From the NCBI RefSeq assembly GCF_030013205.1, contig NZ_CP122648.1: 64,000 nucleotides of DNA. One strand, written 5' to 3'. Every line of letters starts with the position of its first letter. Position 1 is the stretch's first letter. The notes under the pieces are model-generated. The model had not been told where the DNA came from and did not search any database. It saw only the letters and a program-made list of their open reading frames with translations. Both the position numbers and the translations under genes were made by a program. Below, piece by piece: positions 378 through 8,143 of the stretch. This DNA is from Escherichia coli (GTDB lineage: Bacteria > Pseudomonadota > Gammaproteobacteria > Enterobacterales > Enterobacteriaceae).

Positions 378-757
378 TGTCATACCCTCAATTTGTTTTT
401 TCATTTAACCCCACTGCGGGGCCGTTGAAATAACTATATCCCTGGGAATGGCAGACTTCCGTGAGTGGTTGGTTTCAGCGTGTAACGATATGTACAAACG
501 CTGAATAAATTACAGCGTTGATAATAACGTATTGTGACTTAAGGGAAATTTAGCTACCAATAATAGTAGTCTTGATCAGGTTAACTATTTTACTACTTAC
601 AAAGCGGTAGAATAACTGCGCATCAGTAATAAATGACACACAGCAAAATGAATCCGTTTATTTGGGTACTTATAATCCTGATGACGCTAGATGCGCTGCG
701 GGAATTGGCTGGCGCTTCGTCTATTTTAGGATGGCTATTAACGTTGGTTTGAGCAGG

Positions 758-798
758 CAATAAGTCCGGATGGGTATTTACCGCAGTCCGGACTTATT
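758..798. other. perfect 12-bp inverted repeat hairpin between ynfM 3' end and asr promoter region
   Basis: aataagtccgga ... tccggacttatt separated by 16 nt, followed by a T-run on the + strand. Confidence 0.35.
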
Positions 799-800
799 TT

Positions 801-2054
801 TCAGGCGTGCAGACGACGATGCAAACGCGTCCCGACCAGCAGAGCAATGACCAGCATCAGAGCAATAAATGCGCCGACGCCGTTCCAGCCATAGTTATGC
901 CAGAAAACACCACCCAGCGTCCCGGCAATACTCGACCCCAGATAGTAACTGAACAGATACAGCGAGGAGGCCTGGCCTTTAGCGCGTTTTGCGCGGGGGC
1001 CGATCCAGCTGCTGGCTACTGAGTGGGCTGCGAAGAATCCGGCTGAGAAGAGTAACATTCCGGCAAAGATCAGCCACAGCGAGCTAAATAAGGTCATCAG
1101 TAAACCAAACAGCATAACCCCCGTCGAAAACAACATCACCGGACCGCGCCCATAGCGGGTGGTCATGGTTCCGGCTTTGGGGGAGCTCCATGTACCGGTC
1201 AAATAGGCCAGCGATAATAAGCCAACCACGGCCTGGCTGACATGCCAGGGAGAGAGCATCAACCGATAGCCGATGTAATTAAACAGCGTGACGAACGACC
1301 CCATCAGCAAAAAGCCTTCTGCGAACAATAACGGTAATCCCCGGTCACGCCAGTGCAGACGAAAGTTGATGAATAACGTCTTAGGGCGCAGTGAAGTCGG
1401 GCGAAAATGGCGTGATTCCGGGAGGATTTTCCAGAACATCAACGCCGAGGCCAGCGCGAAACAACCGATTGCCGCCAAAGCAATTCGCCAGTTGAAAAAG
1501 TCCGTGAAGACACCGCTAATTAAGCGTCCGCTCATACCGCCAATTGAGTTGCCGCTGATATACAACCCCATCGAAAAGGCCACGAAACTGGGGTGGATTT
1601 CCTCGCTAAGATAAGTCATGCCAACAGCTGCCACGCCACTTAACGAAAGCCCAATCAAGGCGCGCATAATCAAAATGCCGTGCCAGCTGGTCATCATTGT
1701 CGAAAGTAACGTACAAATGGAGGCCAACAGTAGCGCCGTGACCATCACTGGTTTGCGACCAATGGCATCGGATAGCGGGCCAGTAAACAGCAAACCGATA
1801 GCCAACATCGCCGTTGAAATGGACAGTGAAATACTACTGTTAGCAGGCGTTAAGCCAAACTCCTGCGAAAGCACCGGAAGGATAGGTTGCACACAATAGA
1901 GAAGTGCGAAGGTTGCCAGTCCGGCAGAGAAAAGCGCCAGGGTGACACGCATAAATTGCGGCGTACCGCGTTTAATAAATTGATTTGGCTGAGAAATGCT
2001 TTGCTTGTCAGTGTCGCTTGCCGGAGCGCCATCAACAGTTGTAGTACGGCTCAC
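801..2054 (-). CDS. ynfM: MFS transporter YnfM
   Basis: 417-aa ORF, multi-TM hydrophobic profile, divergent from a LysR regulator as in K-12. Confidence 0.9.
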   Translation of the reverse strand: MSRTTTVDGAPASDTDKQSISQPNQFIKRGTPQFMRVTLALFSAGLATFALLYCVQPILPVLSQEFGLTPANSSISLSISTAMLAIGLLFTGPLSDAIGRKPVMVTALLLASICTLLSTMMTSWHGILIMRALIGLSLSGVAAVGMTYLSEEIHPSFVAFSMGLYISGNSIGGMSGRLISGVFTDFFNWRIALAAIGCFALASALMFWKILPESRHFRPTSLRPKTLFINFRLHWRDRGLPLLFAEGFLLMGSFVTLFNYIGYRLMLSPWHVSQAVVGLLSLAYLTGTWSSPKAGTMTTRYGRGPVMLFSTGVMLFGLLMTLFSSLWLIFAGMLLFSAGFFAAHSVASSWIGPRAKRAKGQASSLYLFSYYLGSSIAGTLGGVFWHNYGWNGVGAFIALMLVIALLVGTRLHRRLHA

Positions 2055-2160: not shown

Positions 2161-3054
2161 ATGAATATTGAACTTCGTCATCTGCGTTACTTTGTTGCGG
2201 TTGCAGAAGAGCTGCATTTCGGGCGCGCCGCTGCCCGCCTGAATATTTCGCAACCACCGCTAAGTCAACAGATTCAGGCGCTGGAGCAACAAATTGGTGC
2301 CCGACTGCTGGCACGGACCAATCGCAGTGTATTGCTGACGGCAGCAGGAAAACAGTTTCTTGTAGATAGTCGGCAAATCCTGTCTATGGTGGATGATGCT
2401 GCCGCTCGCGCTGAAAGGCTGCATCAGGGCGAAGCGGGGGAGTTGCGCATTGGTTTTACTTCGTCCGCTCCTTTTATTCGGGCAGTGTCCGATACGTTAT
2501 CGCTGTTTCGCCGTGATTATCCCGATGTCCATTTACAAACCCGCGAAATGAACACTCGCGAGCAAATCGCTCCGCTCATTGAAGGAACGCTGGATATGGG
2601 ATTGCTGCGTAACACAGCGTTACCGGAGACGCTTGAACACGCAGTCATCGTCCATGAACCGCTTATGGCGATGATCCCGCACGATCATCCCCTGGCAAAT
2701 AACCCGAGTGTAACGCTGGCTGAACTGGCGAAAGAACCCTTTGTCTTTTTTGATCCGCACGTCGGGACAGGGCTGTATGACGATATTCTCGGGCTGATGA
2801 GACGTTACAATTTGACGCCCGTCATCACTCAGGAGGTGGGTGAGGCAATGACCATCATCGGTCTGGTTTCCGCCGGTCTGGGTGTTTCAATTTTGCCTGC
2901 GTCATTTAAACGTGTTCAGCTCAACGAAATGCGCTGGGTGCCGATTGCTGAAGAGGATGCGGTTTCTGAAATGTGGTTGGTCTGGCCGAAACATCATGAA
3001 CAAAGTCCGGCTGCGCGTAACTTTCGTATTCATCTGCTGAATGCTCTCAGGTGA
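2161..3054 (+). CDS. ynfL: LysR-family transcriptional regulator YnfL
   Basis: 297-aa ORF with N-terminal LysR HTH (MNIELRHLRYFVAVAEELHFGRAA). Confidence 0.9.
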   Translation: MNIELRHLRYFVAVAEELHFGRAAARLNISQPPLSQQIQALEQQIGARLLARTNRSVLLTAAGKQFLVDSRQILSMVDDAAARAERLHQGEAGELRIGFTSSAPFIRAVSDTLSLFRRDYPDVHLQTREMNTREQIAPLIEGTLDMGLLRNTALPETLEHAVIVHEPLMAMIPHDHPLANNPSVTLAELAKEPFVFFDPHVGTGLYDDILGLMRRYNLTPVITQEVGEAMTIIGLVSAGLGVSILPASFKRVQLNEMRWVPIAEEDAVSEMWLVWPKHHEQSPAARNFRIHLLNALR

Positions 3055-7288: not shown

Positions 7289-8143
7289 TTAACCTGCAAT
7301 AGCCATTCCTACCGTCATGTGCAGGCCATAAAAGAGCACACGCCCGATCATCTCACCGCCAAGTATGAGGATTAGCCCCAGAATAAGTCCGGCAACGTGA
7401 GGTTCACGGCGACGAATGAGCGGACAAAGCCAGCATCCTAGACCTGTGCATAACAATACCACACGCCAGACCTGTAAGGAGGCGTAATCTGGTACCAGTG
7501 CGCTGGCTTGTTGTACGGATGAGTGAATAGACGCCAGAGACAAACCTTGCAGCACAATCACCCCGGCACAAGCGATCAGCGCCAGAACGCTAATGATGGC
7601 AAATGTTGTGGTATTAAATGTAACGCGGGCTGCCCGCAGAATTGTGGCAGCAAGTATTGGACCGCTCAACAATACTGTCAGGAAGAAAGCCAGCGTAGTG
7701 TAACCGTTATACCAGGTTGGCACTGTGTCGATTTGATACACGCAGGTCATCATCCAGACGAAAATGACGCCGAGCGCCATGCTGACAAGTAACCAGAGTT
7801 TCCCCAACGCTTGCGGCATTTTACCGATGACCGCCACCAGCCACCATAATCCGCCAACGGCAAAAAATATGGAACCGGCAGCAATCTCGTTACTCAGACC
7901 AGAAGCTCCGATTCGATTCAGCGAGTTAAACGCCCGCAGTGGGGATCCCAGGTGCATGACAGAGGCAATAAACCCGATGCCCATCAACAGCCAGAGGAAA
8001 AACATGCCACGAACAATGTGCTGACGGTCTGCGTCATTTTTGGCGGCGAACCAGCCAATTCCGCTAACAATCAGCGCGCCTACTACGCATTGACCCAATA
8101 CGGTAAAGATAACCAGTGGCCATTCATGCCATCCATTTCCCAT
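7289..8143 (-). CDS. ynfH: DMSO-reductase-type membrane anchor subunit YnfH (DmsC paralogue)
   Basis: ORF 7289..8383 but real start is the ATG at 8141-8143 (MGNGWHEWPLVIF...), 284 aa, 8 TM-like segments; 1 nt after ynfG stop region. Confidence 0.85.
   Translation of the reverse strand: MGNGWHEWPLVIFTVLGQCVVGALIVSGIGWFAAKNDADRQHIVRGMFFLWLLMGIGFIASVMHLGSPLRAFNSLNRIGASGLSNEIAAGSIFFAVGGLWWLVAVIGKMPQALGKLWLLVSMALGVIFVWMMTCVYQIDTVPTWYNGYTTLAFFLTVLLSGPILAATILRAARVTFNTTTFAIISVLALIACAGVIVLQGLSLASIHSSVQQASALVPDYASLQVWRVVLLCTGLGCWLCPLIRRREPHVAGLILGLILILGGEMIGRVLFYGLHMTVGMAIAG

Follow-up and report, generated by a model that had tools for sequence, protein, structure and literature searches.

A conserved hairpin between the convergent ynfM gene and a 34-codon gene of Escherichia coli as a probable bidirectional intrinsic terminator

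What purpose is served by a perfect inverted repeat lying immediately beyond the stop codon of ynfM, in the spacer that separates this gene from asr? In a preliminary description of the 64-kb stretch of E. coli DNA analysed here (the window), the gap between ynfM and the asr promoter was regarded as empty, and the repeat was read either as a bidirectional terminator insulating asr from ynfM read-through or as a protein-binding palindrome. The gap is not empty; it contains a conserved small gene, transcribed from the + strand, which had been missed, and for this reason the description could not explain why the T-run adjoining the repeat points in the direction opposite to both ynfM and asr: the T-run serves the small gene. 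The repeat fills the space between the stop codons of two convergent genes, and the properties reviewed below make it quite probable that it represents their shared bidirectional intrinsic terminator, a strong one for the small gene and a weaker one for ynfM.

The two arms of the repeat, AATAAGTCCGGA (759–770) and TCCGGACTTATT (787–798), are 12 nt long, 100% complementary and separated by a 16-nt spacer; the repeat reported earlier is real, apart from the fact that it begins at 759 and not at 758. It is the sole perfect inverted repeat of the window with arms no shorter than 12 bp and a spacer of 3–20 nt, the chance expectation obtained from 200 dinucleotide-preserving shuffles being 0.04 such repeats per window, with a maximum of 1. 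The 16-nt distance between the arms had been correctly measured but does not correspond to an open loop, since the spacer pairs internally, GGU (773–775) with ACC (780–782) and with two more pairs, leaving a tetraloop AUUU at 776–779. The full hairpin (759–798), interrupted by two 1-nt bulges, comprises about 17 bp; its minimum free energy is −21.5 kcal/mol (z −5.2) for the RNA of the + strand and −22.0 kcal/mol (z −6.3) for that of the − strand. The G+C core of the stem is GUCCGGA/UCCGGAC, which in the preferred explanation takes the form GUCCGGA(C)...(G)UCCGGAC; in K-12 the first base of the spacer is C, not T, and a 13th Watson–Crick pair is thereby formed. A 14-nt direct repeat of 86% identity has one copy near the end of the small gene (GGATGGCTATTAAC, 729–742) and the other reaching into the spacer of the hairpin (GGATGGGTATTTAC, 768–781); it is probably the product of chance, and its spacer copy is not kept in the other Escherichia species.

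The features of the locus are collected in Table 1, the orientation of the window being the reverse of that of K-12, where the coordinate of any position is 1671753 minus its window coordinate.

Table 1. Coordinates of the genes and sequence elements surrounding the hairpin (window positions unless otherwise indicated)
Feature	Position	Strand	Remarks
asr	69–377	−	
RstA-box-like sequence, TGTACATATCGTTACA	481–496	−	about 260 bp past the hairpin in the direction of ynfM transcription
Candidate −10 element, TAGAAT	608–613	+	some 34 nt ahead of the ATG at 648; putative promoter role
Small gene, KPN_01571 family	648–752	+	34 codons; TGA stop at 750–752
Small gene in K-12	NC_000913.3 complement(1671001..1671105)		
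Tail past the G+C core, ynfM strand, UUAUUGCCUG	754–763	−	weaker U-tract
U-rich tail past the G+C core, small-gene strand, TTATTTTTCA	794–803	+	runs into the ynfM stop codon
ynfM	801–2054	−	MFS exporter; TGA stop at 801–803
ynfL	2161–3054	+	

The small gene and ynfM are convergent and their stop codons are separated by a 48-nt gap filled by the hairpin, which is 6 nt away from the small-gene stop (+ strand) and 2 nt away from the ynfM stop (− strand), just past which it had been placed in the preliminary description. The element at 481–496 is a putative RstA box by its resemblance to the published RstA consensus. Just upstream of the start region of asr, in what is presumed to be its 5′ leader, there is another, small G+C hairpin (CCCCACTGCGGGG, 410–422) that is invariant across the Escherichia species.

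The product of the small gene is MNPFIWVLIILMTLDALRELAGASSILGWLLTLV. It matches the NCBIfam profile NF033695 (“trnsprt_adja_30”, “KPN_01571 family”) over positions 1–29 of 30 with 63.3 bits, the cut-off being 35, and in many E. coli genomes the gene is annotated by PGAP as “KPN_01571 family protein”; it is missing from the RefSeq annotation of K-12 MG1655, though the K-12 sequence is intact. An ATG located further upstream, at 633, is unlikely to be the true start, as judged from the aligned sequences, in which the MNPF start is conserved and position 633 is GTG in E. albertii. The distribution of the gene was drawn from ynfM-anchored loci of 80 Enterobacteriaceae species, in which ynfM is itself under purifying selection. 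Homologues convergent to ynfM, all starting with MNPF, are found in 25 of the 80, including Escherichia, some Citrobacter, Klebsiella, Raoultella, Kosakonia, Phytobacter and Pluralibacter, and in every one of the 25 species having the gene it adjoins ynfM; an enterobacterial survey of small ORFs places the family also in Citrobacter koseri, Cronobacter and Salmonella (PMC11188072 supplement). A word-based protein search with the small protein returned Escherichia and Shigella only, a restriction due to the very short query, and the table of novel small ORFs in the Stringer 2021 preprint holds no entry at the K-12 coordinates. The homologues are mostly 30 amino acids long, those of Escherichia being extended by four codons. 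The entropy at the three codon positions amounts to 0.88, 0.28 and 1.30 bits in 26 small-gene sequences, and dN/dS between Escherichia species lies mostly between 0.03 and 0.3. On the strength of these sequence comparisons the small gene is considered to be real, coding and under purifying selection.

As to its expression, the candidate −10 hexamer is invariant in seven Escherichia sequences and occupies the same place in three Citrobacter loci (L009, L010, L019); no good −35 element accompanies it, and a consensus scan of positions 300–1100 yielded no canonical sigma-70 promoter. Some 95 nt upstream of the start codon, at 554–569 of the + strand, lies a partly palindromic motif, CTACCAATAATAGTAG, having no second copy within the window; related motifs (TACCATAATAG and AGTAGTAGTT) precede the small gene in Citrobacter, Kosakonia, Phytobacter and others, and the motif could be a putative regulator binding site. 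The gene is not uniform within the species: a 13-bp deletion (711–723, GGCGCTTCGTCTA) truncates the protein to ...RELAF in 81 complete E. coli genomes, including those of Nissle 1917, ATCC 25922, clone D i2/i14 and UPEC 26-1, and many other versions, truncated or differently started, are present in the protein databases. In Nissle 1917 (L093, 120–140), the sole strain with the deletion allele that was read, the hairpin is intact, an observation that bears on the alternative in which the small gene alone would require it.

Several properties expected of an intrinsic terminator are found at this position, namely a stable G+C stem-loop, a U-tract 3′ to it on the + strand and a location, in the sense orientation, after a gene. 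The T-run, already recognized in the preliminary description, consists of the T residues at 797–801 and is contained in TTATTTTT (794–801). The corresponding tail of the small-gene RNA (UUAUUUUU / UUAUUUUUCA) has seven U in eight positions, a count repeated in all six Escherichia species, whereas the tail of the ynfM strand (UUAUUGCC), whose first five residues are UUAUU, has a borderline four in eight, rising to five or six in the other Escherichia species. The base of the stem, AAUAA/UUAUU, is symmetric, and past it the run of U continues on the + strand only. A simple terminator scan of positions 300–1100 did not call the hairpin, because its rule requires an ungapped stem and a loop of 3–8 nt.

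From this anatomy we infer that transcripts would be terminated at the hairpin and that the efficiency would differ between the two directions. An RNA polymerase entering from the left on the + strand would transcribe the small gene, form the G+C-rich stem followed by UUAUUUUU, and release its RNA at approximately 800–806, at the point of entering ynfM in the antisense direction. A polymerase arriving from ynfM on the − strand would form the complementary hairpin followed by the tail at 754–763, giving a weaker terminator placed immediately after the ynfM stop codon. The base of the stem (AAUAAG/CUUAUU when extended by one pair) would act as an A-tract in one direction and as part of the U-tract in the other, a layout familiar from bidirectional terminators. 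The element mainly separates the two convergent units. The type of terminator proposed earlier is in keeping with the anatomy, position and covariation of the hairpin, but the insulation of asr, which lies some 270–300 bp further on, would at best follow secondarily from the weaker activity in the ynfM sense.

Bidirectional intrinsic terminators have reportedly been described genome-wide in E. coli by Ju and colleagues in 2019. Like those serving other convergent genes, the present one consists of a single G+C-rich hairpin placed between the stop codons, A-rich on one side and T-rich on the other, and the two transcripts would likewise overlap over a stretch roughly as long as the hairpin; it differs in having unequal sides (as the U counts of the two tails indicate), a long and bulged stem of about 17 bp and unusually close stop codons. 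With canonical Rho-independent terminators it shares the G+C stem-loop, the tetraloop, the tail that follows directly, the location after a stop codon and the covariation, whereas the 16-nt spacer within a perfect repeat and the lower A-U stem doubling as U-tract set it apart.

The structure, its place between two real convergent genes and its conservation as a structure are matters of direct observation. The 13-pair helix was compared in 11 Escherichia sequences, taken from five species-level lineages and from E. coli variants; pairing is retained in 98.6% of the cells of the alignment, and compensatory changes are seen at three pairs (UA to CG; AU to GC, in three lineages; CG to UA, in two); the pairing falls to about 50% when the partner is slid by one column, and the same 13-pair helix is independently recovered by RNAalifold. 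The sequence of the spacer varies freely and its length ranges from 14 to 18 nt. Directly after the stem, on the strand of the small gene, a run of five or six T is invariant in all Escherichia species. In one strain, E. coli Ec-2939 (L089, about 300–551), IS200C is inserted directly after the CTTATT of the hairpin, replacing the T-run and parting the hairpin from ynfM; elements of the IS200 family prefer targets beside hairpins.

The main rival explanation is that the terminator works in one direction only, ending the small-gene transcript while the ynfM RNA is ended by Rho or runs on toward asr. This unlikely reading draws on the restriction of the strong U-tract to the + strand and on an allele common in E. 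coli (L086–L088), in which an A to G change in the 3′ arm leaves the + strand RNA paired, as U.G, whereas the − strand RNA acquires a C.A mismatch and its fold energy weakens from about −26 to between −19 and −22 kcal/mol. Against it stands E. albertii, where the asymmetry is reversed and the mismatch falls in the + strand RNA; indeed, the single-base variants of the stem follow no consistent strand direction and do not single out a functional strand. The UUAUU that opens the ynfM-strand tail and the richer U content of this tail in the other Escherichia species also speak for activity on the ynfM side, as does the fact that in many genera devoid of the small gene ynfM has, at the same position, a canonical terminator of its own in the ynfM sense.

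Outside Escherichia the sequence is replaced, and the conservation across Enterobacteriaceae that had been put forward as a check holds at the level of structure: a G+C hairpin of different sequence lies between both stop codons in 24 of the 25 loci having the small gene (the first 19, all with a hairpin, being scored by script and the other six by eye, with a hairpin in five). The side carrying the U-tract changes with the genus, being that of the small gene in Escherichia and that of ynfM in Kosakonia and Phytobacter, while neither side has one in Klebsiella and Raoultella. These comparisons indicate that selection is on a structure at this position and not on its sequence, and the pattern of Klebsiella and Raoultella could mean that what is conserved across genera is the 3′-end hairpin as such, and not intrinsic termination. 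The latter two genera, together with some others that keep the hairpin without a U-tract on either strand, supply the argument for a second alternative, according to which transcription stops at another place, through Rho or because converging polymerases collide, and the RNAs are then trimmed back to a stem that blocks 3′ exonucleases. For E. coli this is improbable, considering that the block of an exonuclease needs no U-tract, whereas the five or six T after the stem never vary within Escherichia.

The organization of the region past ynfM differs in other genera. In Enterobacter, Leclercia, Franconibacter, Buttiauxella, Cedecea and Dryocola (loci L021, L022, L029, L030, L036, L051, L065, L066, L069, L072, L073, L080 and L082) a long-range stem, GGCCTCGTGTTT ... 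ACACGAGGCC, is found within about 90 nt past the ynfM stop; it encloses a second hairpin, ends at an ATG (MKNNN.../MEKQNY...) and has the look of a structured leader belonging to another gene downstream. In Superficieibacter, Trabulsiella guamensis, Intestinirhabdus and others (loci L032, L056, L067, L070 and L083) a promoter region of the asr type (TGTACAAACGGTTACAC...CTCACGGAAAG) follows ynfM almost directly, with no small gene in between, so that the segment of about 270 bp carrying the small gene represents an insertion/deletion polymorphism among genera.

The other reading of the preliminary description, a palindromic operator bound by a dimeric protein regulating asr, the small gene or ynfM, is very improbable. 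Conservation of the outer half-sites AATAAG.CCGG is good within Escherichia, and the ynfM–asr spacer is bound by regulators such as RcdA, whose box is TTGTnnACA (PMC3535384). However, the distance between the arms is not fixed among the Escherichia species and the centre is free to change, compensating changes in the stem bespeak selection for pairing and not for base identity, unrelated hairpins are swapped in at the same position in other genera, and the repeat is placed where both flanking genes end and not where a promoter is located. Upon inspection, both the RcdA box and the RstA-box-like sequence prove to be outside the hairpin, so that an RcdA or RstA site within it is ruled out.

Finally, the view that the repeat derives from a dispersed element (REP/BIME, MITE or insertion-sequence end), as a copy or a remnant, or is a chance palindrome is scarcely credible, for, in spite of a TCCGGA-containing G+C palindrome superficially resembling REP and of the IS200C found directly beside it in one strain, the 61-nt region has one place per genome (median 1) in 5421 of the 5426 complete E. 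coli genomes, near-matches to the arms number 7 in the window against 4.7 expected, two of them being the arms themselves, and the shuffles leave little room for chance. As in REP elements, an extragenic G+C palindrome is placed at the 3′ end of a gene; unlike them, the hairpin is single-copy and has no REP consensus, and its assignment to REP or to a mobile element was rejected on these grounds. One near match in the window, AATAAGTCCGGC at 7382, was likewise set aside as due to chance, being located inside a coding sequence and forming no hairpin. A search of positions 1–2300 against Rfam 15, with E values up to 10, gave no match at 600–810 and two matches at chance level elsewhere (E 1.6 and 7.4).

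Is there any sign of the predicted transcripts? A paper on Erwinia small RNAs (PMC4070566), with reference to the 2011 work of Raghavan, Groisman and Ochman (Genome Res 21:1487), mentions an E. coli RNA that originates from the ynfM–asr spacer, possesses a Rho-independent terminator and is Hfq-independent. The hairpin is probably the terminator of that RNA, because no other terminator-like structure was found in the ynfM–asr spacer. As far as the citation in PMC4070566 allows a comparison, a + strand transcript extending from about 620 to about 803 would fit the “ynfM-asr” RNA; were the two the same, the RNA would encode a conserved 34-amino-acid protein instead of being non-coding. In the Term-seq tables of Adams et al. 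2021 no 3′ end falls within K-12 positions 1669718–1672076, which may merely reflect low expression and does not speak for read-through, and no 3′ end appears in the ynfM–asr region in the TERMITe 2025 and SMRT-Cappable-seq 2018 tables. ynfM was poorly transcribed under the conditions of a Salmonella study (PMC4330354), and low expression of this gene could account for the absent 3′ ends.

A further step may be contemplated by analogy. AcrZ is known to act on AcrB. The + strand transcript of about 185 nt might be the “ynfM-asr small RNA” of 2011 and at the same time the mRNA of a conserved hydrophobic protein of 30–34 amino acids acting on YnfM as AcrZ acts on AcrB. With both stop codons so near the stem, terminating ribosomes could hinder the formation of the hairpin, and read-through, along with antisense interference between the convergent units, would then depend on translation. 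Taken jointly, these assumptions are speculative and rather doubtful.

The hairpin itself would be a standard ending for two convergent transcripts, belonging to a class that is fully known, and this very instance was probably already noticed in 2011. By its position it would keep the transcript of the small gene from running antisense into ynfM and may cut ynfM read-through toward asr. Of more interest is what emerged as a by-product, namely a conserved 34-codon gene that lies beside a drug-efflux transporter, is unannotated in K-12 MG1655 and probably corresponds to a transcript once listed as non-coding (“ynfM-asr sRNA”, Raghavan 2011). Its recognition slightly amends the map of a model organism and offers a candidate small-protein partner for YnfM.
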